Origin: an uncultured Spirochaetota bacterium
Lineage (GTDB): Bacteria; Spirochaetota; Spirochaetia; SZUA-6; DRHE01
Assembly: GCA_963736785.1 (NCBI GenBank)
Contig: CAVTQG010000061.1
Location: 105,918 to 169,917 of the forward strand
DNA length: 64,000 bases
Direction: 5' to 3'
Under the pieces are notes generated by a model that saw only the letters and a program-made list of their open reading frames with translations, did not search any database and had not been told where the DNA came from. Below, one piece after another: positions 4,132 to 55,000 of this stretch. Position 1 is the stretch's first letter; each line of letters opens with the position of its first letter. The position numbers and the translations under genes are program-made.

Positions 4132-4204
4132 TGAGCCGCGCAGGACTCGAACCTGCGACCCACAGCTTAAAAGGCTGTTGCTCTACCACCTGAGCTAGCG
4201 GCCC
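4132..4204 (-). tRNA. tRNA-Lys (TTT)
   Basis: GGGCCGC...GCGGCTC-A acceptor, anticodon arm ACAGC-CT-TTT-AA-GCTGT, GTTCGAG T-loop. Confidence 0.95.
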
Positions 4205-4224
4205 GCCGAAGCGGAAGCACGGGC

Positions 4225-4254
4225 ACTATAGCACCGGCCCTCCGCGAGTGTCAA
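4225..4254 (-). promoter_or_regulatory. Sigma70-type promoter of tRNA-Lys
   Basis: TTGACA-18 bp-TATAGT. Confidence 0.6.
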
Positions 4255-4311
4255 TTCGAGGCTTGTCGGCGGGTGGGAGGGTTGCGGGGCTTGTGGTGAA
4301 CGCGGGTGCGG

Positions 4312-7295: not shown

Positions 7296-7317
7296 TCCGG
7301 GAATCGTAGCGTAGCCC

Positions 7318-8043: not shown

Positions 8044-8050
8044 GGGCAAC

Positions 8051-33108: not shown

Positions 33109-34378
33109 ATGGACGATAGCAGCAACAGACGCGTGGGAATCAGCGACATCCGCGTCTATCTACCGTACCCGGTGATCGATCTTCAGGATATCATCCGCAA
33201 GCGCGTGGCCGAGCACCCGCGGCTGGCCCGCCACATGGCGCGCGCCCTGGCCACCACGGGACAGAAATCCATCCGTTTCCCGGAACCCTGGGAGGACACC
33301 GCGACCATGGCCGCCCAGGCCGCCTACGAGCTGGTGCGGTGCAACCCGAACCTGGAAATGGCCGCGATCCGGCACCTGGCGGTGGGCACCGAGACCACGG
33401 TGGACCACGCCAAGCCGGTTTCGGCGTACGTGCAGGGCATGCTGCAAAGGGCCGGGGTCAAACTCCCGGACTGCCTCTCCAGTTTCCAGGTCCAGCACGC
33501 CTGCGCGGGGGCGACCATGGCCCTGCTCAGCGTGGCCAGCATGCTGCAGACCTCCAACCTTCCGGGGGAGTCGGGCATCGTGATGGCCAGCGACATCGCC
33601 CGCTACGACACCGAGAGCACCGCCGAAATCACCCAGGGCGCGGGGGCGGTGGCCATGCTCGTGGAGAACTCCCCGAAGCTGATCGATCTGGACCTGTCCA
33701 CCGTGGGCTACTACTCGAAGGACGTGGACGACTTCTTCCGGCCGCTGGGCTCGAAAACCGCCAAGGTCCAGGGCCGCTACTCCATGGACTGCTACCTGGA
33801 GAGCCTGGAGGGCGCGTTCCTGGACCATTGCCGCCGCGCCGGGCTAGAGCCCCCAGCAGGCGCTGAACGACAGCGAGCTGGTCATGCTGCACACGCCGTT
33901 CCGGAACATGCCCGAAAGCGCCATGCAGCACCTGCTGGAGAGGCACCTGGGATTCACCAACGGGCACACCGAAGGCTACCTCCGCGACCGGGGCTTCTAC
34001 CAGGGGGTGGACCCCCTCTCCTACATCGGCAACACCTATGCCGGCTCGCTGTACCTGGCCCTGGCCTTCCTGCTGTACCATCGTTTCCGGGAGCTGGGCG
34101 AGAAGATCGTGGGCAAGCGCGTGCTGCTGGCCTCCTACGGCTCCGGCAACACCATGATCATCCAGGCCGGCCGGGTGATGCCCCAGGCTCCGGAGGTGCT
34201 CTCCGCCTGGGACCTGGACCGGACCCTGGCGGCCCACCGCCCGGCCTCCATCGAGGACTACGACCTGCTGGACCGAAGGCCCGTACGAGGCCGCGGAGCA
34301 CGAACGCCTCAACCAGGGGCGGCAGGTTCCGGCAGACTCCTTCTATCTGGCCAGCATCCGGGAGGATGGATACCGTGA
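33109..34378 (+). CDS. mvaS: HMG-CoA synthase of the mevalonate pathway (frameshifts near 33850 and 34280)
   Basis: EDTATMA, GTET, QHACAG, SDIARY, TQGAGAVA, HTPF, GNTYAGSL, SYGSG. Confidence 0.9.
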
Positions 34379-35457
34379 GTACCGACACGCCGCCGAGCTC
34401 CACCATTGGCTTCCGCAAGGAGAAGCATCTAGCGATCTGCACCGATCCCGCCCGGTTCACAGTTGAGGGGGCCTCCAGCGGCTTTTCCAGCCTGCGCTTC
34501 CTGCACCGCGCGCTGCCCGAGCTGGCCGCCGACCAGATAGACCCTTCCTGCCGCTTCCTGGAGCACGACCTGCGCCTGCCCCTGTTCATCTCCTGCATGA
34601 CCGGCGGCTCCGAACAGAGTCTGACGGTCAACCGGGAGCTGGCCAAGGCCGCCCAGGCCGCGGGCTTGCCGGTGGGCCTGGGCTCGTTCCGGGTGCTGTT
34701 CCAGCACCCGGAGCTGGCCGGGCAATTCCGACTCAAGAGCCTGGCTCCGGACGTCCCGGTTCTGGCCAATCTCGGCGCCGTGCAGGTGCGCGACCGCCCC
34801 CACGCCGAGATCTTCGAATGGCTGCGGCGCCTGGAGGTGCAGGCCCTGGTCGTGCACCTGAACCCGGGGCAGGAGCTGTTCCAGCCGGAAGGGGACCGTG
34901 ACTTCCGCGGCCTGAAGCAGGCCATAGCCCGGCTCTGCGAGCGCTCGCCGGTGCCGGTGATCGTCAAGGAAACCGGGTTCGGCATTCTGCCTTCCATCGT
35001 CCGGGAGCTGCTCGGCGCCGGTGCCGCCTACGTGGACCTGGCGGGCGCCGGGGGGACCAACTGGATCCGGGTGGAAGCCTACCGGCTCACCGGCGAGCAG
35101 CGGGCCGCCGCCGAGGAGTTCGCCGACTGGGGGCTGCCGACCGCCGTGCTCCTGGGGGCGCTGCGGGGCACCGACCGCGTGCTGGCCTCCGGGGGACTGC
35201 GCAGCGGCCTGGACGCGGCCAAGGCCGTGGCCCTGGGCGCTCGCCTGGCTGGGATGGCCCTGCCCTTCATCCGGGAGGTTTGCGCGGGAGGCGCCGAGGC
35301 GGTGGTCGGTCTGGTCCGCCGCCTGGAGCTGTCCTTCCGCACCGCCATGCTTCTCACCGGTTCCCGCACTCTGGAGGACCTGCGCCGCGGCGTGCTCTGG
35401 CCCGAGCCGGCCTTCACCACCGCCGTGGAGGCGCTGCGGGCCGCCGACAGCGCATGA
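34375..35457 (+). CDS. fni: Type 2 isopentenyl-diphosphate isomerase
   Basis: RKEKHL, ISCMTGG, HLNPGQE, VKETGFG, GAGGTNW, ASGGLR. Confidence 0.93.
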   Translation: MSTDTPPSSTIGFRKEKHLAICTDPARFTVEGASSGFSSLRFLHRALPELAADQIDPSCRFLEHDLRLPLFISCMTGGSEQSLTVNRELAKAAQAAGLPVGLGSFRVLFQHPELAGQFRLKSLAPDVPVLANLGAVQVRDRPHAEIFEWLRRLEVQALVVHLNPGQELFQPEGDRDFRGLKQAIARLCERSPVPVIVKETGFGILPSIVRELLGAGAAYVDLAGAGGTNWIRVEAYRLTGEQRAAAEEFADWGLPTAVLLGALRGTDRVLASGGLRSGLDAAKAVALGARLAGMALPFIREVCAGGAEAVVGLVRRLELSFRTAMLLTGSRTLEDLRRGVLWPEPAFTTAVEALRAADSA

Positions 35458-35743: not shown

Positions 35744-36126
35744 CCGGAGGCCTCCTCCTGCACGGCGAAGCTGGACCCGCAGCCGCAGGCGGAAACGGCG
35801 TTGGGATTCAGAAACCGGAAGCCGGCCTTCACCAGGTCGGCGCTATAGTCGATCGAAAGCCCCTTCAGGTACCGGAAGCTCGTCCCGTCGCTCACCACCC
35901 GCAGCTCCTCGTCCTGGTACAAGAGGCGGTCGAACGGGGTCTGCACGGAGTCGATCCCCATTTCGTAGGTCAGTCCCGTGCAGCCGCCGGGCACCACCAC
36001 CAGCCGCAGAAAGCCCGCGGAGCGCAGCTCGGCCCCTCCCAAGCGCAGCAGCTCCTCGCGGGCGGCCGCGCTCACCTGAATCAAATTGCCCAACGGAATG
36101 TCCAAGCCCTCTCCTTGCATATCCAT
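35740..36126 (-). CDS. A-type Fe-S carrier (IscA/HesB family)
   Basis: GGCTGLTY and [14 protein letters not shown]. Confidence 0.9.
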
Positions 36127-36159
36127 ATATTACTGATTTTATTATATTCAAGAATAGCC

Positions 36160-37183
36160 ATGCACGCCATAAACGAAGAGCAGGTCCTGAAGGCCCTCGG
36201 CACGGTCATGGAGCCGGAGCTGCACCAGGACATCGTTTCCCTAAATTTCGTCCGGAATATCCACATCGACGGCAACGCGGTAAGCTTCACGATCATGCTG
36301 ACCACTCCGGCCTGCCCGCTGAAGCATATACTGCAACAGGACAGCGAGAACGCCCTGCGCCGCGAGCTGCCGGGCATCGGAGCGATCCACGTGGGCTTCG
36401 ACTCCCAGGTGCTGGCCGACAAGCGCATCCAGGAAAAGCTCGACGTGCCGATCAAGACGATCCTGGCCGTGGGCAGCGGGAAAGGCGGGGTGGGAAAAAC
36501 CACCGTGGCCGTCAACCTGGCCGTAGGGCTGGCGCGCGACGGGGCCTCGGTGGGCCTTCTGGACGCCGACATCTACGGCCCCAATGTCCCGCTCATGACC
36601 GGGGTGCGCGAGCTGCCTCCCGCGCGCGGGGACAAGCTGGCCCCGGCCCTGGCGCATGGAGTGTGGGTGATGAGCATGGGCTTCCTCATCCCCCAGGACG
36701 AGGCTCTGGTCTGGCGGGGGCCGATGATCCACGGCGCCCTGCGGCAGCTTTTCTCGGATGTGGCCTGGCCGGAACTGGACTACCTGGTCGTGGACCTGCC
36801 GCCGGGCACGGGCGACGCCCAGCTCAGCCTGGCCCAGCTGGTTCCCCTGACCGGCGGCATCGTGGTGACCACGCCCCAGGCGGTCTCCGTGGCCGATGCC
36901 CGGCGCGGGGTGCGCGCCTTCCAGCGCCTGGAGGTGCCGGTCCTGGGCATCGTGGAGAACATGTCCGGACCGACTTTCGGCAGCGGCGGCGGGGAGGAGG
37001 CGGCCCGCGACCTGGGTCTTCCCCTGCTGGCCCGCCTGCCCATGGACCCGCAGATCGTGCGCGGCGGCGACAACGGCCTCCCCCCCGCGGCCGGGGAGGG
37101 GGGAGCTTTCCGAGGCCTTCCGCCGGCTGGCCCGGGTGGTGGCCGGGCGCTTGAGCGTGTCCCAGTTCCGGCGCAGCGCATGA
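36160..37183 (+). CDS. apbC: Mrp/NBP35 (ApbC) Fe-S carrier ATPase (frameshift near 37100)
   Basis: DPELHQDIV-like N-terminus, [34 protein letters not shown]; C-terminus [12 protein letters not shown]...* is in another frame. Confidence 0.9.
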
Positions 37184-38067
37184 GCGGTCCGCCCGAGCGC
37201 AAGCCGGAGTGGCTGCGCATACGCCTCAACACCAGCCCGAGCTACGTCTTCCTCAAGCGCCTGGTGCGCGAAGAAGGCCTGCACACGGTCTGCGAGGAGG
37301 CGCGCTGCCCGAACCTGCAGGAATGCTGGGGCACGCACCGCACCGCCAGCTTCATGATCCTGGGAGATACCTGCACGCGCCGCTGCCGTTTCTGCGCCGT
37401 CAAGACGGGTCTGCCCCGCGCCGTGGATCGGCAGGAGCCCGAGCGGTTGGCCCTGGCGGTGCGGCGCATGGGCCTGCAGCACGTGCACGTAACCATGGTG
37501 AACCGGGATGACCTGCCCGATGGCGGGGCCTCCCTCATGGCGGCCACGGTGCGGGCCATCCGCCGGGACAACCCGGGCTGCTCGATAGAGGTGCTCTGTT
37601 CGGACTTCATGGGCGACCCGCAGGCCATCCGGCAGGTCGTGGACAGCCGCCCGGACATCCTGAGCCACAACCTGGAAACGGTGCGCCGGCTCACCCCGCT
37701 GGTGCGTTCGCATTCCGACTACGACCGCTCCCTGGCCTTCCTGCGCCTGGTGCGCGACAGCGACCCGGGCACGGTGACCAAGTCCAGCCTCATGCTGGGC
37801 CTGGGCGAAGGCCACGACGAGGTGGTGCAGGCCATGCGCGACTTGCGCCAGGCGGGCACGGACATGCTGAACCTGGGCCAGTACCTGCAGCCCAGCCGCA
37901 CCCACCTGCCGGTGGTCCGCTACTGGCCGCCGGAGGAGTTCGCCCGCCTGCGCAGCCTGGCCCTCCGCCTGGGCTTCCAGCACTGCGAGGCGGGGCCGCT
38001 GGTGCGCTCCTCCTACCACGCCGGACAGCAGCTCCAGGAGTTCCGGCAGCGCGCCGCGGAGGCCTGA
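37180..38067 (+). CDS. lipA: Lipoyl synthase
   Basis: [44 protein letters not shown]. Confidence 0.95.
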
Positions 38068-42146: not shown

Positions 42147-43280
42147 CTAGCTGAGATCCCGCGTGTAGACCCGATAGGTGCGGTAGTGCTCGGCGCCCCA
42201 GTTTTCGAGCAGGTTTCGTACCGGGTAGTTGTCTTCGATGATCCAGGAGAACTCCGCCCCGCGGTAGCCGGCTTCGAGGCCGCGCCGGTAGGTCTCGTAG
42301 ACTATCAATGCGTCGATGCCCTGGTTGTGGTAGTCACGGGTCACGCCCAGGATGGCCAGACGCAGGACATCCACCTTCTTCCGCCCCAGGAGCAGGCGGA
42401 AGATGCCAAAGGGCAGCAGCCGGCCGTTCATCTTGATGAGGATCTGGTTCACGTCGGGGAGCGGGATGCTGACGCCGATCAGCCTGCCCTCGGCCTCGGC
42501 GAGCAGCACGACCCGCGGATCGGCCACCAGGCGCAGATCGTTCGCCATGAAGTCGAACTCCTCGCGAGTCCACGGGACGAACCCCCAGTTCCTCTCCCAG
42601 GCCTGGTTGTAGACGTCTCGGATCCGTTCGACCTCCGCCTTGAAGTTCTTCTTCATGTCGATGGTGCGCAGGCTGACCTTCCGCTTCTTCTGCACGATCT
42701 CTGCCACCCGCCGGATCTTATCCGACATGGGGAGGCTTGAGGCGAGCATGCGGTAGCAGTAGAGGTCCTTCTCCTTCCGGAAGCCGCAGCCCTCGTAGAG
42801 AACCGGGTAGTATGGAAGATTGTAGCCCATCTGGATCATGGGAGGAATGTCGAAGGAGTCGATGAGCACACCCAGAATGTGGTCGGGCGATGGGTTCATG
42901 GGCCCCATGATCCGCGCCATGCCCCTGGCCTTGGCCCAGGCGGCGGCGGCGTCGAAAAGAGCGCGCGCCACCTCGAGGTCGTCGATCGCCTCGAAGAAGC
43001 CAAGGTAGGCGACCTTCTCCTTCTGGAACTGCACGTAGTTGTGGTCGAGAATCGCCGAAATCCGTCCGACGATCCGTGAATCGCGGTAGGCCAGGAAGTG
43101 CTGGCACTCCACGTGGGCCCAGAAGGGGTTCTTCTTCGGATCGATGGTGTCCTTCTCGCCGACGATGAGAGGCGGTACCCAGTTCTTGCTGGGATTGCGC
43201 CCGCGGTAGATCTTCCAGGGGAACATTATGAAACGTTTGATCTCAGCAGCCGTCCGGACAGGCTCCACGCTTACTGACAT
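42147..43280 (-). CDS. Double-GNAT acyltransferase, bacterial ceramide-synthase (bCerS)-like
   Basis: FIMFPWKIY...WVPPL...KNPF...FLAYRDSRIVGRISAI...GFFE...GPMNPS...YNLPYYP...EFSWIIEDN...YRTYRVY. Confidence 0.7.
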   Translation of the reverse strand: MSVSVEPVRTAAEIKRFIMFPWKIYRGRNPSKNWVPPLIVGEKDTIDPKKNPFWAHVECQHFLAYRDSRIVGRISAILDHNYVQFQKEKVAYLGFFEAIDDLEVARALFDAAAAWAKARGMARIMGPMNPSPDHILGVLIDSFDIPPMIQMGYNLPYYPVLYEGCGFRKEKDLYCYRMLASSLPMSDKIRRVAEIVQKKRKVSLRTIDMKKNFKAEVERIRDVYNQAWERNWGFVPWTREEFDFMANDLRLVADPRVVLLAEAEGRLIGVSIPLPDVNQILIKMNGRLLPFGIFRLLLGRKKVDVLRLAILGVTRDYHNQGIDALIVYETYRRGLEAGYRGAEFSWIIEDNYPVRNLLENWGAEHYRTYRVYTRDLS

Positions 43281-43489
43281 CACCCACCCCCACTCGACCT
43301 GGATTCCCCGGCCTGCGCCCGGAGTTTGCTTGCCCGGCGCAGGGGGTTGTGCTATGCAGAGGCCCGGTTATAGGTATAGCAAAGAGCTGCGGCGGACGCA
43401 ATACAGGCGGGCGTATCTACAGCCCATACCGGGGTGGATGGACGAAGCTGTCCAGGAGAATTACACTCACTGGCTTGAGAGGGATATCA

Positions 43490-44920
43490 GTGAATCGTGA
43501 AACGCACGGTGTGCAAACGCTATTGGGCGACCCGAAAAAAGCGATCATCAAGCTCTCGATACCCATGTTTGTCGCCATGTCGATACAGACAATATACAAT
43601 CTAGTCGACGCGATCTGGGTCGCGGGCAAGGGCGAGTCCGCTCTTTCCGCGGTTGGATTCTTTTTCCCCTTCACGATGCTGCTCACGTCGATCGCGACCG
43701 GCCTGGGGATCGGCGGAGGGGCGGTTATTTCACAAGCGATCGGCGCCAGGGACGCTAGAAAAGCGGATTCGGCAGCTTCGCATACGCTCATCATCATGCT
43801 TTTTCTTTCGGTGCTGATTACGATCCCGCTCTTTCTCTTCGCCGAGCCCCTCTTCCGCCTCATGGGTGCAACGAGCTCGATCCAGGAGACGCTCGCCTAT
43901 GCACGGATCATGTTCGCCGGGATCGCGCTCATTTTCTTCACCCAGGTTGGGATGTCCCTTTTGCGAAGCGAAGGGGATGCGAATAGGGTCATGATTGGAA
44001 TGATCATTGGATGCGTGCTCAATATCGGGCTCGATCCAATTTTCATCTACAGGTTCGATATTCCGATCCCGGAGGTGCCGGCAGGCCTCATCGGCGTCGG
44101 CCGCGGGATCACCTCCATTTCGATCGGTCTCGGCCTCGGGGTCGCGGGCGCGGCGTATGCAACGATCATATCGATTGCGGTCTCTTCTCTTCTTCTATTT
44201 TACTGGCTCTTCGTCCAGAGGAAAACGTATCTCGCAATCCATTTCAGGGGATTTCGATTCGATTCAGCAATCACAAAGAAAATCATCGCGATCGGTGTGC
44301 CGACGATGCTCATGCAGATGTCCATGTCCCTGATGATGTTCGGCGTCACCTCGATCATTACTCGGGTAAGCGGGGACGCGGGCGTAGCGGTCTTTTCCAC
44401 CGGGTGGAGAGTCGTCCAGGTCGCTACGCTTCCGATTCTCGGGATCGGAACTGCCGTGATCGCAGTCGTCGGGGCGGCGTACGGCGCCCGTGCGTTTGAT
44501 AAGTTATCCGTGTCGAAGAACTACGCGCTCAAGATCGGGGTGGGGCTTGAGCTTGTCTTGGGCGCGGCGACGTTTATTTTCGCGCCGTACATAACAAGAG
44601 TATTCACGTGGTCGGCAAAAACCGCGCACCTCGTCGACGACATCACCACCATGCTCAGGTATCTCTGTTTCGGTTACCCTGCCACGGCGATCGGGATGCT
44701 CACCTCGTCGTTTTTCCAGGGCGTCGGGAAGGGATTGTATTCGCTTATCGTCACGATCATCAGGACCCTCATTATCGTGATCCCTTTGGCCGCGATCTTG
44801 GCCATTACATTCGGAATGGGCATGAACGGAGTGTATCTCGGATTCGTGATCGCGGGATGGGCCGCTTCCCTCTTCAGCCTTGTGTGGGCCCAGGCTTTCC
44901 TCAGGAAGCTCGGGCGGTAG
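43490..44920 (+). CDS. MATE-family efflux transporter with atypical codon usage
   Basis: GVQTLLGDPKKAIIKLSIPM, YNLVDAIWV, LRSEGD, NIGLDPIFIY. Confidence 0.9.
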   Translation: MNRETHGVQTLLGDPKKAIIKLSIPMFVAMSIQTIYNLVDAIWVAGKGESALSAVGFFFPFTMLLTSIATGLGIGGGAVISQAIGARDARKADSAASHTLIIMLFLSVLITIPLFLFAEPLFRLMGATSSIQETLAYARIMFAGIALIFFTQVGMSLLRSEGDANRVMIGMIIGCVLNIGLDPIFIYRFDIPIPEVPAGLIGVGRGITSISIGLGLGVAGAAYATIISIAVSSLLLFYWLFVQRKTYLAIHFRGFRFDSAITKKIIAIGVPTMLMQMSMSLMMFGVTSIITRVSGDAGVAVFSTGWRVVQVATLPILGIGTAVIAVVGAAYGARAFDKLSVSKNYALKIGVGLELVLGAATFIFAPYITRVFTWSAKTAHLVDDITTMLRYLCFGYPATAIGMLTSSFFQGVGKGLYSLIVTIIRTLIIVIPLAAILAITFGMGMNGVYLGFVIAGWAASLFSLVWAQAFLRKLGR

Positions 44921-44948: not shown

Positions 44949-45665
44949 TCAGCCCTGGAACCTCCACCACTCGAGCCTGGCGGGCCCGCCCTCCAGGCAC
45001 AGGGCTCCGACATAGCCCGGCGCCGGGCTGAAGTCGCGCAGCCACCAATCCTCCCCTTTGATCAGGGGCACCTGGAATCCGGTCGCCGAGTAGGCGGCCA
45101 CCGGGACCTCGAGACGGGAGAAGGAAGCCAGAAGGTCCAGTGCCAGCGCCTTGGCCGCGGCCTCGCGGCGGTTCCAGATCAGGAAGAAGGCCCGAGTGCG
45201 GTGCTCGCCGCTGTGCGACTCGACGAAGCCGCGCTCCTCGGCGGTGAAGATGTATGAGAGCACGGCCTGCATGGCCGGCAGCTCTCGAAACCTCTCGATG
45301 TCCACGCCGACCCGCTTCTGTTTGCTGACCGCGACCAGGGCCAGGTCTCCGGCATGGGAGAGGTTGAACTGCAATCCGTCCAGGTAGGGTTTTCCTGAGG
45401 GCCCGGTGGCCAGCCGCAGAGCCTGCGGGCGCTCCTGAAGGTAGGCGGCCAGGATCCTCCTCAGGGCGGCTCGAGCTGCGACCGAGCGCAGGCGGTCTGC
45501 GGGCCGGTGAAAACGCCGAGCCTCTAGTCTCTCTTCAGGGGAAAGGAGGCGCTCCAGGCCCGAAAGGCCCCTGGGCCCCGTCGAAAGAGCGACCAGCCAC
45601 AGGTGCAGGCAGCCCGGCCGCAGGCCAGGCCGCCTTGGCGGGTCCTCCCAGGGCGCGCCGTCCAT
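44949..45665 (-). CDS. Sfp-type 4'-phosphopantetheinyl transferase
   Basis: GPSGKP, FNLSHAGD, VGVDIE, WNRREAAAKA (WxxKEA variant). Confidence 0.9.
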   Translation of the reverse strand: MDGAPWEDPPRRPGLRPGCLHLWLVALSTGPRGLSGLERLLSPEERLEARRFHRPADRLRSVAARAALRRILAAYLQERPQALRLATGPSGKPYLDGLQFNLSHAGDLALVAVSKQKRVGVDIERFRELPAMQAVLSYIFTAEERGFVESHSGEHRTRAFFLIWNRREAAAKALALDLLASFSRLEVPVAAYSATGFQVPLIKGEDWWLRDFSPAPGYVGALCLEGGPARLEWWRFQG

Positions 45666-45745
45666 AACTGTCCATGGTAGGCAACCTCCCGCGTCTTGAC
45701 AAGCCGCCCGCGCTTCGGTTGAATAGCAAGAACTTGAAACAAAAC

Positions 45746-46995
45746 TTGAGAAATCCGCATGAAGTCCGGGTGGTGATCACGGGCATGGGAGCCATCACCC
45801 CCATTGGAAATACCGTTGCCGAGTACTGGGACAATCTCATCAAGGGCAAGTCGGGGGTGCGGCGCATCAGCAGCTTCTCCACGGAGGACTACTCCGTGCA
45901 GATTGCGGGCGAAATCGATCTTCCGGACGTGGGCCCATACTTCAAGGAACGCAAGATGGCCCGTAGGCTGGATCGCTATGTGGTTCTCTCCCAGATAGCG
46001 GGCACGCAGGCCATTCTGGATTCGGGGCTGGAGGTGGATAAGGCTCCGCACCGCTATGGCGCACTCATCGCCACCGGGGACGGCGGCATAGGGGCGCACT
46101 TCATCAACGCCAAACGCATCGTCCAGGACGGGATGCAGGCCACCTCCCCGTTCTTCGTCATGTGCATCCCCAACACCGCTTCCGGCTACCTGGCCATGGA
46201 GTGGAACCTGCAGGGACCCGGTTTCTCCGTGAACTCGGCCTGCGCTTCCGCAAATCATGCCTTCGCGGTGGCCAGCGTGATGATCAAGGCGGGCCTGGCC
46301 GACGCGATCTTCACGGGCGGGTCCGAGGCCCCGGTCTACCCCAACGCCCTGGCGGCCTTTGGCAACATCATGGCTCTGTCGGAGCGCAACGACTCGCCGC
46401 AGACCGCTTCCCGGCCCTTCGACAGGGAGAGAGACGGCTTCGTGCTCAGCGAAGGGGCCGGTGTGCTCTGCCTGGAGGAGTTGGAGCATGCCAGGCGTCG
46501 GGGAGCCAGGATCTACGCCGAGCTGACCGGCTACGGCCTGGCGACCGACGCCCATGACCTGGTGGCCCCCCACCCCGAGGCCAGGGGATCAGCGCAAGCC
46601 ATACAGAACGCCCTGGACGCCGCCGGCCTGAACTCGGAGCAGATCGATCTGATCAACTGCCACGCTACCTCCACCCCGCTGGGGGATCTGAGCGAGAGCA
46701 GAGCCATCGAGCGGGTCTTCAAGGAGTTGAGCGCCAAGACGCCGGCGCACAGCACCAAGTCGATGACGGGGCACCCGATGGGCGCAGCCAGCGCCATAGA
46801 GGCCATCGCGGTCATCCTGGCCATCCAGAGAGGGGTCATCCACCCGACCATCAACCAGTTCGAGCAGGACCCGAAGATCGGCCTCAACGTCGTGCGCAAC
46901 CGGCCCATGGAGGCAAAGGTCGACCATGTCCTGTCCAACGGCTTTGGCTTCGGGGGGCACAACGCTTCGGTGATAATCTCTCGGTTCCGGGCTGA
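45746..46995 (+). CDS. fabF: 3-oxoacyl-ACP synthase II (probable terminal frameshift; ORF track runs on to 47146)
   Basis: VVITGMG, SACASA catalytic Cys, HATST, KSMTGH, SNGFGFGGHN. Confidence 0.92.
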
Positions 46996-47523
46996 TCAGT
47001 CCGGGAAGCAGACCTCCCCAATAGCTACGCAAGCCACCTGGCCGCCGGCCACCACCTGGCCGATCATGGTGGCGAAAAACCCGTCATACTCCAGCTTTCT
47101 GGCTAAGAGAGTGAGCTCCTGGCCGGGCAGGACGGGGGCCAGGTAATGAGCCCCCAGGATGCGCGTGGCCATCACGCGCAGGGGGCGAGGTTCGGCCGGG
47201 GCCTCCAGGCTGCGGCTCTCCAGGAAGTAGTGCAGGCACAGGCCGAGCTGCCCGATCATCTCCACCTCCAGGCAGCCAGGGTACACGGGAGATCCGGGGA
47301 AGTGCCCGGCAAACACCGGATCGTCGGCCGGGATGGTGCGCGAGCCGGCGATGAGGCCCTCCTCGAAGGCGATGCCGGTCAGGCGGTCCAGGAGCAGGAA
47401 CGGCTCCCGGTGCGGCAGGATGCGCTTGATCCGCTCCCGGTCCCAGTCGAGGGGCTCGAGCCGGTCCGCGGGGGAGGCCAGGAGTCTCTTGCGGTGCTGG
47501 CGCAGAAGGGCGTCGGGATCCAC
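46996..47523 (-). CDS. FabZ/FabA-like hot-dog dehydratase
   Basis: LPHREPFLLLD, HFPGSPVYPGCLEVEMIGQ; GTG start at 47523. Confidence 0.85.
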   Translation of the reverse strand: MDPDALLRQHRKRLLASPADRLEPLDWDRERIKRILPHREPFLLLDRLTGIAFEEGLIAGSRTIPADDPVFAGHFPGSPVYPGCLEVEMIGQLGLCLHYFLESRSLEAPAEPRPLRVMATRILGAHYLAPVLPGQELTLLARKLEYDGFFATMIGQVVAGGQVACVAIGEVCFPD

Positions 47524-47534: not shown

Positions 47535-48785
47535 CTACCGGCCCTTGACGATGACGTCCTCGATGATGTTGAGGGCCGTGTCCATCTGCTCCCGGGTGAA
47601 CTGTGAGGACACGGAGATGCGGAAACGCCGGGATTCGGCCGGCACGGCCGGGAAGTCCACCGGCTGCAGGAACAGCCCCCGCCGCTGGATCTCCGCCGCG
47701 AAGTTCATCAGCTTTTCTCCCGAGGAGCCGATGATGATCGGGATGACCTGGGACTCGCTGTTGCCCAGGTCCAGCTTCAGATCCCTCAGGCCCTTGGCCA
47801 GGTACTTCACGTTCGCCCACAGCGCGTCCCTCAAGCTGGAGTCCCGGGTGGCCACCTCCAGGGCCTTCATCAGGCCGGCCACCACCGGAGGTGAGGGCGC
47901 GCAGGAGAAGTTCCACGGCGAGGAATAGCCCTTGAGGTAGTTGATGATGCCGGCGTTGGAGCACACGAACCCTCCCACGCCGCCGAAGGACTTGCTCAAG
48001 GTCCCGAAGCTCATGCCGATCTCGTGCTCCAGCCCGAAGTGCTCAGCCACGCCCCGCCCGTTGGGCCCGAACATGAGCGTGGAGTGGGCTTCGTCGATGT
48101 AGGTGGCCGCCTTGTGCTGCTTGCAGACCTCCAGGATCTCGGGGAGCCTGACCAGGTCCCCGTCCATGGAGTACACGCCCTCGAAGGCCACCAGCACCCG
48201 CTTGCCCTTGCTCTTCTCCAGCATCGAGTCCAGGGAGGCCGGGTCGTTGTGCTGGAAGAACAGCATCTTGGCCCCGGACAGGGTGCCGCCGTCGATCAGG
48301 CTTTTGTGGCACTTCTCGTCCAGGATGAGGACATCGCCCTTGCGCAGCAGGCCCTGGATGGCGCCGAGGTTCCCGCCCAGCCCGCTGGAGTACAGCAGGC
48401 AGTCCTCTTTCTGCTTGAAGGCGGCCAGCTGCCGGGCAAACTGCACGTGCAGGTCAAAGGTCCCGGAGAGCAGCGGAGCCCCGGAGGCGCCCAAGCCGTA
48501 GCGATCCAGAGCCTCCTTGGCCGCCTGGATGACCTCCGGATGGGAGGACAGCCCCAGGTAGTTGTAGGAGGTCATGTTGATGGTGCGCCGCCGCACGCCG
48601 TCCAGGCTCATGACCTCCGTGTCCGGCCGGGGGGCGGCCAGAAACTGCTGCCCGAAGAAGCGCATGGCGGACTGGATCTCCCGGTGGCCGATCCACTCAA
48701 GATAGTCGCTGGGGGGCGTGAGGACATCGGGGTTGTCGTTGAAGAAAAAGTCCGCCAGGCTGAACCGGAGCGCGTTCTCAGGCAT
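47535..48785 (-). CDS. PLP alpha-oxoamine synthase (acyl-ACP:amino acid C-acyltransferase)
   Basis: SYNYLGLS, PLLSGT, CHKSLIDG, EGVYSMDGD, DEAHS, GTLSKSFG, FPAVP. Confidence 0.88.
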   Translation of the reverse strand: MPENALRFSLADFFFNDNPDVLTPPSDYLEWIGHREIQSAMRFFGQQFLAAPRPDTEVMSLDGVRRRTINMTSYNYLGLSSHPEVIQAAKEALDRYGLGASGAPLLSGTFDLHVQFARQLAAFKQKEDCLLYSSGLGGNLGAIQGLLRKGDVLILDEKCHKSLIDGGTLSGAKMLFFQHNDPASLDSMLEKSKGKRVLVAFEGVYSMDGDLVRLPEILEVCKQHKAATYIDEAHSTLMFGPNGRGVAEHFGLEHEIGMSFGTLSKSFGGVGGFVCSNAGIINYLKGYSSPWNFSCAPSPPVVAGLMKALEVATRDSSLRDALWANVKYLAKGLRDLKLDLGNSESQVIPIIIGSSGEKLMNFAAEIQRRGLFLQPVDFPAVPAESRRFRISVSSQFTREQMDTALNIIEDVIVKGR

Positions 48786-49032
48786 CGACTTTGTTCGCGT
48801 ATTCCAGGAACTTGGTGGCCAGCTGGTCGATGTTGTTGATGTCCGCCAGCTCCGAGCGGGGCACCTTTATCTTGAGATCGCGCATGGAGGTGGACACCAC
48901 TTCGATCATATCCAGGCTGTTGGCCCCGTAGTCCTTCATGGATTTCTGGGGATCGATGCTGGCCGCGTCGATGTCGTCGATGTTCGACGCGATGTTCTTC
49001 TTGATCACCTCAACCACCTGCTCTTTGGTCAT
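48778..49032 (-). CDS. Acyl carrier protein (AcpK/donor-like)
   Basis: DYGANSLDMIEV phosphopantetheine site, 84 aa, acidic. Confidence 0.9.
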   Translation of the reverse strand: MTKEQVVEVIKKNIASNIDDIDAASIDPQKSMKDYGANSLDMIEVVSTSMRDLKIKVPRSELADINNIDQLATKFLEYANKVDA

Positions 49033-49035: not shown

Positions 49036-49833
49036 CTACTCCTTCTCCATCAAGTATCTCATCATCGAATTATCCTGGAAAGGAAGCCCGTAGTCAACGC
49101 TGATGATCTGTCCGTTGACGGCGTCCAGCCACCCGCTGCACAGGGCCAGCACGGCCTTGCCGCAGTCCTGCGGGGTCAGGATCATCCGTGCCGCCCCCTG
49201 CTTTTCCATGTAGGAGAAGAACTCCTTTCCGAAGATAGCCCGGAAGGACTCGGTGTCGACGCTGCCGAAGCGCAGCACGTTCACCCTGCATCCCTCGGCG
49301 AAAAGGTGCACGGACAGGTATCGCGAGAAGAACTCCAGCAGCGCCTTGGAGGCGGCCACGAAGTCGTAGCCCCTGTAGAAGTGATCCGGGCCGTCGCTGG
49401 AGATGCCCAACACATATCGGGGGTAGCGGCCGAAGCGGGCCTTGATCCTGCGCGTGTAGTCGATGAGCGGCCAGGTGCTGTACTCGAGGGTCTTGAACAG
49501 GGAGCGCTTCTTGTAGTCCTCCAGGCTTTGAGTGCGCAGGGCGAAGCTCACGTTGCTGACGAAGATGTCGATGCCCTGGATGCTGCCGCCCAGCTCCGCC
49601 ATCAGGCGCTCGGTGTCCTGCTCCACGGCCGCATCGGCCTGGTGGAAGCCCGGCGGCGGCGCCCCCAGGGCCTCGAACCTCCCTGCCAGCTCGGCCAGGT
49701 CGACGCTGCCCCACTTGTAGGTCAGGAACACCCGAGCTCCGGCCTCGGCCAGCGCCAGGGCCGAGGCCAGGCCGATGCCCTTGGTGCCGCCCGTGATGAG
49801 AGCCGTCTTCCCACGCAGGTCCACGCCTACCAT
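49036..49833 (-). CDS. FabL/FabI-like enoyl-ACP reductase (SDR)
   Basis: TGGTKGIG; Y-x6-K active site YDFVAASK(ALLE). Confidence 0.75.
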   Translation of the reverse strand: MVGVDLRGKTALITGGTKGIGLASALALAEAGARVFLTYKWGSVDLAELAGRFEALGAPPPGFHQADAAVEQDTERLMAELGGSIQGIDIFVSNVSFALRTQSLEDYKKRSLFKTLEYSTWPLIDYTRRIKARFGRYPRYVLGISSDGPDHFYRGYDFVAASKALLEFFSRYLSVHLFAEGCRVNVLRFGSVDTESFRAIFGKEFFSYMEKQGAARMILTPQDCGKAVLALCSGWLDAVNGQIISVDYGLPFQDNSMMRYLMEKE

Positions 49834-49851: not shown

Positions 49852-50601
49852 TCAATCCGGGTACTGCTCTTCGATGGTCCGCCTCGTCTCCGGAAAAGAG
49901 AAGCTGATGCGATGCATCAGGTCTTCCTGCAGGCGGGCCTGGATCAGCAGCTTCTTCTTTCCGGCGCTCAAGGCGTTTTTGAGAAGAAACACCGACCGCC
50001 CGTCCTTCTCCGCCACCTGAGCGGCGATGTCCCGTGCCTTCGCCAGGACCTCACTCCTGGGCAGGATATAGTTGATGTGGGTTCCTTTGTTCTGCAGCTC
50101 GCTGCCCCGGAAGCGCTTGCCGGTGAGCATCATCTCGTTGGCCACGAACGGGCCTACCAGCTCCTGCAGCAGGGTGGTGCAGCCCATGCCCGGGGTGAAC
50201 CCCAGGCTCATGAAGACCGCACCGTAGCGGCTCTCGCGGGCGGCGATGACGATGTCGCAGCACAGGCCGACGGCCAGGCCCCCTCCGATGGCGTGGCCCT
50301 CCATGGCGGCGATCACGGGAAAGGGGGCTTCCAGAAGCCGCTCGCAGAGCACCAGGTCTGCCACCGCTGCCTTGCCGTCGCAGAGGTCCAGCAGGGCCTG
50401 CTTCTCCGCCCCGCCGCAGAACACGTCCTCCAGACCGTGCAGGACGAGCACCTTGGGCTTCAGCGTGTGCTCCAGCTCGTCCAGGGCCTGGAGAAAGTCC
50501 GCGATGAAGCCCGGGGAGAAGACGTTGCGCCCCTCGCGGTCGTCCATCTTCAGCCAGCCGACCCCGTCGGGGTCCCGGCTCGGCCTCATGCGCCCGCTCA
50601 C
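49852..50601 (-). CDS. Enoyl-CoA hydratase fold, ECH2 decarboxylase (PksI-like)
   Basis: FCGGAEK, GHAIGGGL, FMSLGFTPGMG, RFRGSEL, EDLMH; GTG overlaps the upstream stop. Confidence 0.85.
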   Translation of the reverse strand: MSGRMRPSRDPDGVGWLKMDDREGRNVFSPGFIADFLQALDELEHTLKPKVLVLHGLEDVFCGGAEKQALLDLCDGKAAVADLVLCERLLEAPFPVIAAMEGHAIGGGLAVGLCCDIVIAARESRYGAVFMSLGFTPGMGCTTLLQELVGPFVANEMMLTGKRFRGSELQNKGTHINYILPRSEVLAKARDIAAQVAEKDGRSVFLLKNALSAGKKKLLIQARLQEDLMHRISFSFPETRRTIEEQYPD

Positions 50602-51443
50602 GGTGTATCCTCCTTCTCCGGCTCGCGCCATCGCGCCATGGGTCCCTCGGGCTTGAAGCGCGAAAACCAGGGCGGCAGGTCCCCGTCCCGGAAGGCCCTC
50701 ACCCCCTGCAGGGCCGCCGGGTCGCGCAGCAGGCGCAGCAGACGGCGGCGGGCCAGGGCTGCAGCCTGCCCCGGGGTCTTGCCGATCAGCTCGGCGGTGA
50801 AGTCCTTGGCCTGCGAAAGCGCCTGAGGGGAGGAACGAAAAATGCGGCCGAAAATCTCGCGCAGCCGCTGCTCGGCCAGTTGCGCCGAGGGCAGAAGCTC
50901 ATCCACCAGGTTCAGGCGCAAGGCCTCGGACGCCGGGATGCGCATCGAGCTCAACACCAGGTAGCGCGCCTTCTGAGGCGGCACCCGCAGGGCCAGCAGA
51001 TAGGGAAGCACGTTGGCCGGGATCAGTCCGAAGAGCACCTCGCCCAGCTCGAAGCTGGCCGCCTCGGTGGCCACCACGATGTCACAGGCGCACACCAGCC
51101 CCAATCCGCCCGCCTTCACCTCGCCCTGCACCAGGCAGGCCACGGGCAGCGGCGCGCGGAACATGGCGGCCAGCAGATCGGCGTAGCGCCCCACGGCCCT
51201 CTTCGCTTCGGCCTGGCTGCCGCGGCCGGCATGGGCTGCCAGGCGGCCCAGATCCATGCCCAGGCAGAAGGCCGCCCCGCCGGAGCGCAGCAGGACGGCC
51301 CGGGCTTGCGGGTCCCGCACGGAGCGCTCGAAGGCAGAGGCCAGCTCCTCCACGCTTTGAGGGTCCAGCAGGTTGCCGTGTTCCGCATCCTTGAGGGTGA
51401 TGAGCGCCACCCCGGCGTCCATTTGCTGTTCGACCAGTGACAC
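50598..51443 (-). CDS. Enoyl-CoA hydratase fold, ECH1 dehydratase (PksH-like)
   Basis: FCLGMDL, GEVKAGGLGLVCACD, GEVLFGLIPANVLPYL. Confidence 0.85.
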   Translation of the reverse strand: MSLVEQQMDAGVALITLKDAEHGNLLDPQSVEELASAFERSVRDPQARAVLLRSGGAAFCLGMDLGRLAAHAGRGSQAEAKRAVGRYADLLAAMFRAPLPVACLVQGEVKAGGLGLVCACDIVVATEAASFELGEVLFGLIPANVLPYLLALRVPPQKARYLVLSSMRIPASEALRLNLVDELLPSAQLAEQRLREIFGRIFRSSPQALSQAKDFTAELIGKTPGQAAALARRRLLRLLRDPAALQGVRAFRDGDLPPWFSRFKPEGPMARWREPEKEDTP

Positions 51444-51449: not shown

Positions 51450-52679
51450 TCAGCTCCATTCGTAAGTGCGGTAGAAATCCTTCACTTCCCGCAGCACCAG
51501 GCGCCTGCGGCCTCGATAGTGCCGCTCGTACCAGCCTCCGGGCATGGAGAAGTCAGGAGTGAAGTCCGGTTTCTCGATGGAGGCTTCCCGCATCTTTTCG
51601 ATGGTCTCGTATTCTTCCACGCTCACTTCGCGGCGGGCGTCCAGGGCTTTGTCGATTTCCATCCGGCCGACCTCTTCGCGGGCCCCCGCGCACAGCCGGC
51701 CGCTGTAGAACTCTCCTATGGCTCCGGAGCCGTAGGCGAAAAAGCTGACGCGGTCGCCGGCTTTGAGGTCGGGCACGCCCATGACCATGCCGCAGATGCC
51801 CAGGAAATTGCTGGCCCCATAGGTGGAGCCGACCCTGCGGGCGTACAGCAGGGACGGCAGGACCTTGCGCCTGAAGCTCTCCTGGACCTCGGCCTTGCTG
51901 CGCGGCCGGGCCAGATTGCACACCGTGCGGTGGGCCTGGAAGGCCATGCCGGGGAAGGGGGTGTGGTAGCAGCTCTGGGCGAAATAGGCGTCGAAGTCCA
52001 GGGACTGGCCGTTTCTGCTCAGGTAGTCCTGATACGAGCCCTCCAGGGCGTCCAGGTAGCTGTACAGGCTGACCTCGTTGTTGCCGACCTCGTGGCGGGC
52101 GCTGGGCCGGAAAGTATCGTAGACGTCCGAGGTCCAGTCGCCTTTCGCCTGCAGATCGTACTCGATCACGCGGGGGGTGTCGCTCACCAGCGCCGCGGAC
52201 GCCACCCCGCCCAGGACGAACTCTTCCTTCGCGCCCAGGTGCAGGCGGGAGTAGTCTGTCGAGATCACCAGGGCCTTCCTGCCGTGGTTCAGGCCGGCGG
52301 CGATCCAGTTCAGGGCCGAGTCCAAGGCGGCCACTCCGCTGTAGCAGGCGTGCTTGGTCTCGAAGTTGCGCACGTTGGAAGGCAGCCCCAGAGCGCCATG
52401 GATGTTCGTGCTGATCGGCTTGCCGAAGTCCACCGAGCTCTCGGTGCCGACCACCAGCAGGCCGATGGCCTGCCGATCCTCATCCTCCAGCAGGGGCCCG
52501 GCCGCGTTGGCCGCCATGGTTACGGTGTCCTCATAGAGGGGGTTCAGGGAGCGGGTGTCGATGAGGAAGTCGGCGACCACCTTCTGCGGATCCAGTCCCC
52601 GGGCCGCGGCCAGTTTCTTCTGGTCCAGGTACAGAGAGCAGCCGTACAGGTTGATCTTCTCTATGCCAACGCTCTTCAT
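51450..52679 (-). CDS. HMG-ACP synthase (PksG-like beta-branching enzyme)
   Basis: VGIEKIN, EDTVT, TESSVDFGK, FETKHACYSG, SLYSYLD, YHTPFPGM, FAYGSG. Confidence 0.88.
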   Translation of the reverse strand: MKSVGIEKINLYGCSLYLDQKKLAAARGLDPQKVVADFLIDTRSLNPLYEDTVTMAANAAGPLLEDEDRQAIGLLVVGTESSVDFGKPISTNIHGALGLPSNVRNFETKHACYSGVAALDSALNWIAAGLNHGRKALVISTDYSRLHLGAKEEFVLGGVASAALVSDTPRVIEYDLQAKGDWTSDVYDTFRPSARHEVGNNEVSLYSYLDALEGSYQDYLSRNGQSLDFDAYFAQSCYHTPFPGMAFQAHRTVCNLARPRSKAEVQESFRRKVLPSLLYARRVGSTYGASNFLGICGMVMGVPDLKAGDRVSFFAYGSGAIGEFYSGRLCAGAREEVGRMEIDKALDARREVSVEEYETIEKMREASIEKPDFTPDFSMPGGWYERHYRGRRRLVLREVKDFYRTYEWS

Positions 52680-52688: not shown

Positions 52689-53441
52689 CTATGGCGCGTA
52701 GCTCAGCCCGCCGGCGACGCGGATCACCTCTCCGTTGATGAAACCGGCTTCCTCGGTCGACAGATAGCGCACCAGGCTGGCGATTTCCTCCGCGGTGCCG
52801 ACGCGCTTCAGCGGGCAGTATTCCATCCAGATCTGCTGCAGCTTGCTGGCCATGTGGTTTTCGGTCATGTCCGTTTCCACGTAGCCCACAGTGACCACAT
52901 TGGAGGTGATGCCCCTGGGGCCGTATTCGCGGGCCAGGGTCTTGGTGAGACCGATCAGCCCCGCCTTGGCCGCGGCGTAGTTGGCCTGTCCGCTGGAGCC
53001 CTCCTGGGCCAGCGAGGAAATGTTGATGATCCGGCCCCAGCGCTTGCCCATCATGTGCGCCAGGAAGCTGCGGATGACGAAGAAGGGGCCGGAAAGGTCG
53101 GCGGCGATCACCTCCAGCCAGTCCTCGTCACTCATCATGGCGGCCACGTTGTTGCGCACGATGCCGGCGTTGTTGACCACCACCCCGACGGTGCCAAACT
53201 CCTCGATGACCTGCTCGGCCACCTGCTCTACCTGGGCCGAGTCCTTCACGTCCATACGGTAGGCGCGCACCGCAACGGCCGAACCCAGCTCCCGTGCCAT
53301 GGCCTGGGTCTCGCGCATAGCGGCCTCGTTGCCCACGTAGGTGAAGGCGGTCGGAATCCCTTCCTTGACCAGGCGCAGAACGATGGCCCGGCCGATGCCA
53401 CGTGAGCCACCGGTAACGAATGCGGCCGCTGCTTCTGCCAT
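52689..53441 (-). CDS. 3-oxoacyl-ACP reductase (FabG-like SDR)
   Basis: TGGSRGIG, VNNAG, ISS, NYAAAKAG. Confidence 0.9.
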   Translation of the reverse strand: MAEAAAAFVTGGSRGIGRAIVLRLVKEGIPTAFTYVGNEAAMRETQAMARELGSAVAVRAYRMDVKDSAQVEQVAEQVIEEFGTVGVVVNNAGIVRNNVAAMMSDEDWLEVIAADLSGPFFVIRSFLAHMMGKRWGRIINISSLAQEGSSGQANYAAAKAGLIGLTKTLAREYGPRGITSNVVTVGYVETDMTENHMASKLQQIWMEYCPLKRVGTAEEIASLVRYLSTEEAGFINGEVIRVAGGLSYAP

Positions 53442-53444: not shown

Positions 53445-54728
53445 CTACCCCTCGTAGCGCCGGATCAGGCTGCAGGCGTTGATGCCGCCGAAGCCGAAGG
53501 AGTTCTTCAGCATGCACCGGATCTGGTGTTCCACCGGGCCGGCCGCGCAGACCTCCAGGTCTATCTCCGGGTCCAGGCGATCGATGTTGATGGTCGGGTG
53601 AAGCCGGCCGTGCTTCATCTGCAGCAGGGCACCGATGGTCTCCACGATGGGCGCGGCCCAGCAGGTGTGTCCGAGCATGGACTTGGCGGCGTTGAGCTTC
53701 AGGCGGGGGGCGTGGTCCCCGAAGGCCCGCTTGATGGCCCTGATCTCCTCCAGGTCCCCGGCCGGAGTGCCGGTGGCATGGCAGCTCACGTAGTCCACCT
53801 CCGTCGGGTCCGTGCCCGTGGAGCGCAGCAGCTCATGGATGAGGCGGCCCTGGGTTTCCGCAGCCGGAGCCGGCAGGTGGCTGGCGTTGGCGTTGGCCCG
53901 CACACCCAGTACCTCGCCGTAGATGGGAGCGCCGCGGCGCAGGGCCTGCTGCAGCTCTTCCAGCAGGAGCGTCCCGGCTCCGTGGGAATACACGAAGCCG
54001 GCGCGGCCGACGTCGAAGGGCCGCGAGGCCTTCTCGGGATGGTCCTGGTATTCCGGCTTGACTACCACGGCGTTGATCACCACCGAGGCCTGGATGTCGA
54101 GGGGAGATATATCGAACAGGCCACCGGCCACGACCGCGGTATCGCTTTCGCCGGTCACAATATCGCGGAAGCCTTCCCGGAGGGCCAGGTTGCCGCTGGC
54201 GCAGGCCCCGCCCACCGTGAGGGTCGGGCCCTGCAGGCCCAGGACTTCGGTGATAAGGGCGGGGACATTGGGGTCGATGGCCTCCACGGCTCCCAAGGGG
54301 TCCATGGACTCCGTATCGACCAGGAACCTCCTGGTGTTCTCGTAGATGTAGTTGGAGTTCAGGTTGTGGCCGCCCACAATCACGCTGGCGCGCAGAGGGT
54401 CGACACCTTTTGCGAACAGGCCGGCGTCCAGCCAGGCCGCCAGGCTGCACAGCACCGCAGCCTTGGCCGAGAAGGAGGTGGTGCGGAACAGCTTCTTCAC
54501 TTTCTTGAGCCCCTCGGCCCCAAGCTGGTCGCGGAAGCGCTCCATGGCGGCCTGGAAATCGTAGTCACCCAGGTCGCCTCCGATCTTGCACTCGATGTCC
54601 TTCATGTCCAGGGAGCGCCAGCGCCGGATCCCTGACCGGCCTTGGATCAGGGCCTGGTAGTAGCCTTCCAGGGTGTCGCCCAGGGGGTTGAGGGTTCCCA
54701 TGCCGGTGATGACCACGCGGCGTTTCAT
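53445..54728 (-). CDS. Free-standing ketosynthase (PksF/FabF-like) retaining the catalytic Cys
   Basis: VVITGMG, TVGGACASG, CHATGT, KSMLGH, KNSFGFGG. Confidence 0.9.
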   Translation of the reverse strand: MKRRVVITGMGTLNPLGDTLEGYYQALIQGRSGIRRWRSLDMKDIECKIGGDLGDYDFQAAMERFRDQLGAEGLKKVKKLFRTTSFSAKAAVLCSLAAWLDAGLFAKGVDPLRASVIVGGHNLNSNYIYENTRRFLVDTESMDPLGAVEAIDPNVPALITEVLGLQGPTLTVGGACASGNLALREGFRDIVTGESDTAVVAGGLFDISPLDIQASVVINAVVVKPEYQDHPEKASRPFDVGRAGFVYSHGAGTLLLEELQQALRRGAPIYGEVLGVRANANASHLPAPAAETQGRLIHELLRSTGTDPTEVDYVSCHATGTPAGDLEEIRAIKRAFGDHAPRLKLNAAKSMLGHTCWAAPIVETIGALLQMKHGRLHPTINIDRLDPEIDLEVCAAGPVEHQIRCMLKNSFGFGGINACSLIRRYEG

Positions 54729-55000
54729 TTTGAGAACCATAGCCTTTTTCCCGGCGCTGCTCAAGGGTCCGGCGAGCTCGCCCGGGCCGCTCAATCCACC
54801 CGCAGCCGGTACTCACCTTGCCCACCCCCAGGGCTTTGTTCGCCGTGGTGGCCAGTTCGCGCAGCGTTTCAGACGGACTTGGGAATGGTGCGGTGCGCAA
54901 CGTTTGCAGAGAGCCACCAGAGTAGGACGCTCAGACGGTCTGGGCATCCTCAAGGGACGGGTATCATGGGCTTTGCCCTCGCACCGATGGGTTGCTTATC

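Follow-up and report, generated by a model that had tools for sequence, protein, structure and literature searches.

We report that a gene at positions 42147-43280 (minus strand) of a 64,000-nucleotide stretch of contig CAVTQG010000061.1 (GenBank assembly GCA_963736785.1), here called the window, from an uncultured bacterium of the phylum Spirochaetota, codes for a tandem-GNAT acyltransferase (the window GNAT) that is, by homology, a new member of the bacterial ceramide synthase (bCerS) family. The route to bacterial sphingolipids through serine palmitoyltransferase (Spt), bCerS, and the reductase CerR has been worked out recently, mainly in Proteobacteria and Bacteroidota. An earlier reading of this DNA made without database searches (the sequence-only reading) had suggested that the protein N-acylates a (branched) long-chain base to give a ceramide-like lipid, and this suggestion is now supported by the family of the protein, by the adjacency of its homologs to Spt genes, and by a link to an operon of lipid genes. 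We propose, with a probability of roughly 0.7, that the window enzyme N-acylates a long-chain base derived from an α-oxoamine synthase, most likely the product of AOS1, which is encoded in a neighboring cluster.

Assignment to the YghO/bacterial ceramide synthase family

A search of 5.8 billion proteins with the window GNAT recovered more than 5,000 matches, the best of which come from metagenome-assembled genomes (MAGs) of Spirochaetota and KSB1; one top match carries the source name "Protein YghO." Escherichia coli K-12 YghO aligns with the window GNAT over its full length (33% identity in 374 columns; E value, 4e-69), and its best match in the window genome is the window GNAT itself. The N-acyltransferase required for dihydroceramide has been listed as "aca: CC_1154, yghO ECD_02850, Swit_3908..." (PMC9386255), and CC_1154 has been named CerS (PMC11324152). 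We assign the window GNAT to the bCerS family because of its homology to YghO and because published work treats yghO as the counterpart of CC_1154; the connection to the validated Caulobacter enzyme CC_1154 is indirect, running through E. coli YghO and the published list (PMC9386255). In E. coli strains other than K-12, yghO divergently adjoins genes coding for a fatty acyl-AMP ligase, an NAD-epimerase, an acyl carrier protein (ACP), and an Spt (spt, as named by PGAP), as well as second copies of lptG and lptF, a neighborhood that mirrors the sphingolipid region of Caulobacter. Three features expected of a bCerS are found here, namely, full-length homology to a recognized ortholog (through YghO), an ortholog group that is linked genomically to Spt and a CerR-type reductase, and a GNAT fold in a protein predicted to be soluble or peripheral in the cytoplasm. 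The YghO family as a whole is strongly expanded in the spirochete order of the host, with up to 10 matches per genome among 61 relatives, at 30 to 37% identity to the window GNAT.

The open reading frame (ORF) codes for 377 aa from an ATG (MSVSVEPV start), and an alternative GTG start would extend it to 42147-43283 on the same strand. Its GC content by codon position (0.60/0.37/0.87) fits a real coding sequence in a window of 66% GC. All of the motifs quoted in the sequence-only reading are present in the translation (FPWKIY, WVPPL, NPFW, FLAY, VGRISAI, GFFE, GPMNP, YNLPYY, and EFSWIIEDN), and they occupy invariant or near-invariant columns of a 27-sequence family alignment. Profile libraries are less telling: Pfam Acetyltransf_1 matches two stretches of the protein (31 bits), with a faint FemAB_like match besides, no NCBIfam equivalog was reached, so that Pfam and NCBIfam see only a generic GNAT, and a curated-library search added a weak match to an aminoglycoside acetyltransferase. 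Sequence search of the PDB likewise gave generic GNAT matches that do not decide function, and an exact-sequence look-up of the protein found no match. An AlphaFold2 model built on the 27-member alignment is of high confidence (mean predicted local distance difference test [pLDDT], 87.5; predicted template-modeling score [pTM], 0.87), and its top structural matches in the PDB by Foldseek are the tandem GNATs 2WPW, 7Q3A, 5KF1, and MshD (E values, 1e-13 to 1e-10; template-modeling score, ~0.6). Together with the two Acetyltransf_1 stretches, these matches bear out the description of the protein as a double GNAT. A scan for hydrophobic segments found none of transmembrane strength and no signal peptide-like N terminus. 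A soluble protein of this kind is in line with the peripheral, cytoplasmic location of Caulobacter bCerS (PMC11087976).

Conserved gene neighborhoods across phyla

We examined the neighborhoods of GNAT homologs with 39 to 57% identity in a species-representative scan (one genome per species), which yielded 80 loci; genome-level homolog matches total at least 561, and the neighborhood counts cover the 80. These loci span Spirochaetota, Calditrichota, Ignavibacteriota, Bacteroidota, Acidobacteriota, Myxococcota, Planctomycetota, Gemmatimonadota, Zixibacteria, and other phyla, and they were queried by tblastn with the proteins of the window cluster, E. coli Spt, CerR, and ligase, and one spirochete epimerase. 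An Spt-like oxoamine synthase lies in the flank of the GNAT gene in 48/80 loci. In 46 of these 48 it is no more than 500 bp away, in 43 it is upstream and codirectional, and in 32 a CerR-like epimerase of the extended short-chain dehydrogenase/reductase (SDR) type is also present. In a further 4/80 loci, the GNAT gene lies inside an operon combining an HMG-CoA synthase-like gene (HMGS) with an oxoamine synthase; a single locus (1/80) has only the epimerase beside it, and 27/80 have neither an Spt-like gene nor an epimerase. The adjacency to Spt and the epimerase matches the published Spt-bCerS-CerR pathway pattern (PMC11334938).

In a tree of the GNAT homologs, the window protein falls in a spirochete clade (SH-aLRT, 98) that is nested among Spt-adjacent sequences from many phyla. 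Grouping with GNATs from Spt-less genomes, the outcome that the sequence-only reading had itself named as fatal to its proposal, was not seen. Across the relatives, a member of the GNAT family is present in 56/61 genomes, and all 5 genomes without any also lack the Spt-like synthase AOS2 described below. Separately, nine loci in MAGs of Aminicenantes and "Eubacteriales" (L025, L032, L034, L040, L045, L060, L072, L078, and L080) have a gene resembling enoyl-CoA hydratase (ECH) after the GNAT homolog and a FabA-like gene 8 to 9 kb downstream of it, with no oxoamine synthase detected; these loci constitute a third type of context.

The GNAT-headed operon and its rearrangement in the window strain

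The sequence-only reading had noted that the GNAT gene lies under 4 kb from a branching/oxoamine cluster. This estimate is about right: from the GNAT start, the 4'-phosphopantetheinyl transferase (PPTase) gene is 1.7 kb away, the FabF-like ketosynthase gene 2.4 kb, the FabA-like dehydratase gene 3.7 kb, and the oxoamine synthase gene 4.25 kb. The tie between the two is stronger than that reading saw, since in ten independent loci orthologs of the GNAT head the operon itself. In relatives whose GNATs share 50 to 59% identity with the window protein (L004, L005/L006, L007-L010, L147, L196, and L227), the GNAT opens an operon made up of ketosynthase (KS), ketoreductase (KR), HMGS, ECH, ECH, SDR, ACP, oxoamine synthase, and FabA genes, and it is usually followed by a malonyl transferase gene. 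At the head of this operon in L005 (8821-11134), and also in L006, stand two tandem GNAT copies of the clade B described below.

The closest comparison is offered by contig L145, which has ~95% DNA identity to the window and a GNAT with 96% amino acid identity; there, 47 bp separate the end of the GNAT gene from the start of the KS gene that follows it in the same operon. L145 positions 3836-5099 correspond to window positions 43401-42138, and 5109-8061 correspond to 54768-51816. Relative to L145, then, the window GNAT and a 121-bp leader (43281-43401, minus strand) lie 11 kb off, beyond the opposite end of the cluster. The region upstream of the window operon differs from that of L145 and adjoins a Crp/Fnr gene; the stretches that show the rearrangement are 43281-43401 and 54737-54790 in the window and 3836-5140 in L145. 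The leader that travels with the GNAT is conserved in L145, where it precedes the whole operon, and is a candidate promoter or 5' untranslated region; Rfam and promoter/terminator scans around the GNAT gave no Rfam match, no sigma-70 consensus, and nothing above chance. In the same-genus genome G001, the GNAT lies on the same side of the cluster as in the window, 9.5 kb away. An assembly error as the source of the displaced GNAT was considered and rejected, because this independent assembly agrees with the window arrangement, and we regard the displacement as a genuine rearrangement. That the GNAT has stayed within 2 to 10 kb of the cluster through it argues for functional coupling.

Two minimal clusters, found among the ~5 GNAT-positive loci recovered when starting from AOS1 (L222:8280-11224 and L226:7074-11181), come from other lineages and lack the branching genes. 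In both, an AOS1-type synthase and an ACP divergently adjoin a family GNAT of 35 to 36% identity, and L226 also has an epimerase. These loci independently tie AOS1-type enzymes to the GNAT family.

Two paralog clades in spirochetes

Trees of the spirochete GNATs split into two clades. Clade A comprises the copies from operon-free genomes together with copies from the same-genus genomes G001, G002, and G003, whereas clade B (support, 98 to 100%; 16 rows) contains the window copy and 11 operon members, of which ten head the operon and one, L221, follows AOS1. The remaining clade B rows are two beside a CerR-like epimerase (L003 and L146) and two beside a classical SDR; in the close relatives L003 (72%) and L146 (77%), the epimerase gene is divergent from the GNAT. 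G001 carries the operon and both clades, whereas G002 lacks both the operon and clade B and has clade A only. In the window genome, a MAG that is 70% complete, only clade B was found, and no other bCerS-clade copy, hence no clade A, was detected. The remaining paralogs of this genome, on contigs C49, C60, and C22, lie on very long branches and were excluded from later trees. At the level of genomes, the association of clade B with the operon is partial, with the operon present in 4/6 clade B genomes. We read clade B as the probable pathway-dedicated ceramide synthase paralog and clade A as the probable housekeeping one, as judged from these trees and neighborhoods.

Oxoamine synthases and a candidate reductase

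As had been proposed, the window codes for two oxoamine synthases, AOS1 at 47535-48785 (minus strand), within the cluster, and AOS2 at 18158-19358 (plus strand), although a frameshift in the latter had been missed. AOS2 is a canonical Spt-like enzyme. Among NCBIfam models, it scores best against serine palmitoyltransferase NF047600 (488 bits), though under the 640 cutoff, as is also the case for GNAT-adjacent enzymes of other phyla, and in a tree it falls inside the clade of GNAT-adjacent Spt-like enzymes that includes E. coli Spt. Its stop overlaps the start of a FabZ/FabA-like dehydratase gene (19355-19780, plus strand), and the pair is conserved in relatives. The frameshift, of 1 nt, lies near 19122-19125 in a GGGC run, with the frame resuming at 19125. 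Orthologs of AOS2 are single copy in 47/61 relatives, where they are intact at ~404 aa, and similar frameshifts affect the GNAT paralogs and the CerR-like SDR of contig C60, the oxoamine synthase of contig C48, and both the GNAT and AOS1 of G001. Because the orthologs are intact and frameshifts are so frequent elsewhere in this MAG and in G001, the lesion in AOS2 is likely to be an assembly indel rather than a sign of a pseudogene.

AOS1 and the corresponding enzymes of other operons form a separate long-branch clade (support, 100), which neighbors the Spt-like clade and is distant from BioF and Kbl. AOS1 reached no NCBIfam equivalog cutoff, and none was favored. Its distribution is patchy (14/61 relatives), yet its orthologs share 66 to 95% identity.

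The best CerR-like extended SDR of the genome is on contig C60 at ~91560-92713; it has 30 to 39% identity to Spt- or GNAT-adjacent epimerases and is frameshifted in the assembly. At C60:85831-92713 (L093), an MMPL/RND-type transporter gene, a divergent frameshifted YghO family paralog, a 285-aa gene, and this SDR occur together, and the region may be a second lipid locus.

Proposed pathway and alternative explanations

On the basis of these observations, we infer the substrate, acyl donor, order of acylation and reduction, and product of the window enzyme as follows. A cytoplasmic, probably membrane-peripheral tandem-GNAT enzyme of the YghO/bCerS family would take a fatty acyl chain from acyl-CoA or acyl-ACP and attach it to the amino group of a long-chain base (2-amino-3-oxo or 3-hydroxy) supplied by an α-oxoamine synthase, and the product would be a ceramide-like two-chain lipid. 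The operon associated with clade B combines the enzymes of a private fatty acid synthase (FAS) with an HMGS/ECH/ECH cassette for methyl branching and with two further products, a dedicated ACP and the divergent AOS1. Since the clade B GNAT normally heads the operon with AOS1 and the branching cassette, its preferred substrate is probably the methyl-branched base released by AOS1; in the window strain, the GNAT has been displaced, together with its leader, to the opposite side of the cluster. The clade A paralog of same-genus genomes would probably serve the canonical Spt-like AOS2. A bolder version of this proposal, to which we give about even odds, is that these spirochetes make an unreported class of methyl-branched ceramide-like membrane lipids, in which the private FAS with its HMGS cassette would build a branched acyl-ACP, AOS1 would condense this with an amino acid, and the clade B enzyme would add the second chain, in parallel to an Spt pathway with a second paralog.

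Several observations weigh against the assignment of the window GNAT to a base made by AOS1. With a YghO family expanded to as many as 10 matches per genome, membership alone leaves the substrate unfixed, and we have therefore drawn our functional conclusions from the ortholog group and not from the whole family. AOS1 falls outside the Spt-like clade; the amino acid that it uses may not be serine, so that the product may not be a "ceramide" in the strict sense of a serine-derived one. Clade B is present in two genomes in which AOS1 went undetected (G025 and G047), and conversely, 10 operon-positive genomes lack clade B, having other bCerS-clade copies only or none close (G010). Seen from the side of AOS1, a GNAT lies within 10 kb in only ~5/27 metagenome loci with enough flank, and it is absent from the regions examined around the operon in 5/5 relatives in GTDB that carry the operon. 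The operon is therefore not dependent on a local GNAT. With no clade A copy found in a 70%-complete MAG, the window GNAT could equally serve AOS2.

The last point leads to the alternative that the window GNAT is a general ceramide synthase for AOS2 whose place near the branching cluster is without functional meaning. AOS2 is inherited vertically as a single copy in 47/61 relatives alongside a GNAT family present in 56/61, it is missing from all five GNAT-free genomes, no other bCerS-clade copy was detected in this MAG, and most HMGS/AOS1 operons lack a local GNAT. We nevertheless consider this explanation unlikely, in that 11/16 clade B members are inside the HMGS/AOS1 operon, including that of the strain with ~95% DNA identity; the separate clade A copies of same-genus genomes fit the housekeeping role, and such a copy may simply be missing from an assembly of this completeness. 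An enzyme that acylates some other amine, such as an amino acid to give an N-acyl amino acid lipid, or an ACP-bound intermediate in place of a long-chain base, is quite improbable. Genomes of this order carry too many YghO paralogs for all of them to be ceramide synthases, the 27/80 loci noted above have no oxoamine synthase nearby, and Pfam and NCBIfam recognize the protein as no more specific than a GNAT; against this, genes of its ortholog group lie close to oxoamine synthase genes in three different layouts, and the window GNAT is the best match in its genome to E. coli YghO.

Loading domains of the GNAT type occur in HMGS-branching settings, as in the curacin pathway, and the position of the GNAT at the head of an operon with an HMGS cassette and no obvious FabH-type starter enzyme could suggest a CurA-like role in chain initiation, in which the enzyme would decarboxylate malonyl-CoA and pass the acetyl group to the operon ACP to start the private FAS. 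This we judge very improbable: the protein is a free-standing tandem GNAT of the YghO family, not a single GNAT loading domain of the CurA type, and the same ortholog group adjoins plain Spt genes without FAS or polyketide synthase (PKS) genes in 46 genomes. There is scarcely any likelihood in the view that the protein has no lipid role and belongs to the general acetyltransferases of small molecules or proteins. That view draws on the curated libraries, which return Acetyltransf_1 and the weak aminoglycoside acetyltransferase match only, and on the nearest solved folds, which are sugar or thiol acetyltransferases; it is opposed by a lipid gene neighborhood conserved across phyla and by the literature, which places the E. 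coli and Caulobacter orthologs in ceramide formation.

If N-acylation of an oxoamine synthase-derived base is the function of the window GNAT, sphingolipid producers would gain a phylum, and a ceramide synthase would have split into a housekeeping copy and a pathway-dedicated one. The GNAT would then add the last step missing from the neighboring "branched base" operon, whose pathway to a membrane lipid with two chains would thereby be complete, and it would provide a new test case for substrate choice by bacterial ceramide synthases. In sediments and peat, from which these contigs come, such lipids could serve as biomarkers.

Gene content of the cluster and other features of the window

In the window, the cluster begins with the KS gene (53445-54737, minus strand), whose product keeps the catalytic cysteine, and continues on the same strand with genes for a FabG-like KR (52689-53441), the HMGS-like enzyme (51450-52679), two ECHs (50598-51443 and 49852-50631), and a FabL-like SDR (49036-49833), which together make up the branching and private FAS part of the operon. 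These are followed, also on the minus strand, by the dedicated ACP of 84 aa (48778-49032), AOS1, and a FabA/ApeI-like dehydratase (46996-47523), the last gene of the operon. Convergent with the operon is a FabF-like ketosynthase gene (45674-47146, plus strand) that is conserved in relatives, and next to it is the gene for the PPTase, of the Sfp/HetI type (44949-45665, minus strand), a conserved flank of the cluster in relatives. Between the PPTase and the GNAT, and divergent from the latter, lies a gene for a MATE/MOP family transporter (43349-44920, plus strand). Its GC content is 0.56 versus 0.61 to 0.71 in neighboring genes, and the GNATs of G001 and L145 have no MATE/MOP gene next to them; the window transporter gene was probably inserted recently and is perhaps no part of the pathway. 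The sphingolipid region of E. coli also has a MOP-type gene, yghQ, a likeness by class only.

Two apparent fusions occur elsewhere in the window. One (33109-35457), in a mevalonate cluster at 27.6 to 35.5 kb, joins an HMG-CoA synthase N-domain to a flavin mononucleotide-dependent dehydrogenase (IDI-2-like), and the other (36115-38067) joins an Mrp/NUBPL iron-sulfur P-loop ATPase to a lipoyl synthase-like radical SAM domain.

Comparison with known systems

The tandem GNATs of solved structure, namely, 2WPW of the clavulanate pathway, 7Q3A (Mycobacterium abscessus MAB_4324), and the mycothiol synthase MshD, share the two-domain fold with the window GNAT, but at 11 to 13% identity, and they use short acetyl donors and unrelated acceptors. 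Searches of the PDB with the window GNAT by sequence and by fold returned no structure of the bCerS family. In the literature that we searched, we found no report of how spirochetes make sphingolipids or of an HMGS cassette combined with an oxoamine synthase, and spirochetes go unmentioned in the main text of the Black Sea survey.

The window GNAT resembles the bCerS of Caulobacter crescentus (CCNA_01212/CC_1154) and E. coli YghO in family, in length (~375 to 390 aa), in being a soluble tandem GNAT with no membrane segments, and in having orthologs that adjoin Spt and a CerR-like extended SDR in many phyla. In the proteobacterial systems, the bCerS gene is always in an operon other than that of the de novo genes (PMC11324152); in contrast, the spirochete clade B copies head the operon that contains the oxoamine synthase. 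The spirochete system further differs in that its partner AOS1 lies outside the Spt clade, in that the operon adds the HMGS/ECH/ECH cassette and its own FAS enzymes, and in that it is without an acyl-ACP synthetase (AasR) partner. The cassette itself is comparable to the HMGS (HCS) β-branching cassettes of trans-AT PKS systems, such as PksF/AcpK/PksG/PksH/PksI of bacillaene, and of curacin, with which it shares a KS, an ACP, an HMG-CoA synthase-like enzyme, and two enzymes of the ECH family. Unlike these systems, the spirochete operon has no PKS megaenzyme, and its KS retains the catalytic cysteine. The union of the branching cassette with an oxoamine synthase and a ceramide synthase-type GNAT points to a membrane lipid and not to an antibiotic. 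Relative to the known Spt-bCerS-CerR pathway, what is new here is that a bCerS family GNAT shares an operon with branching genes and with an oxoamine synthase outside the Spt clade, and that it has split into two paralogs.

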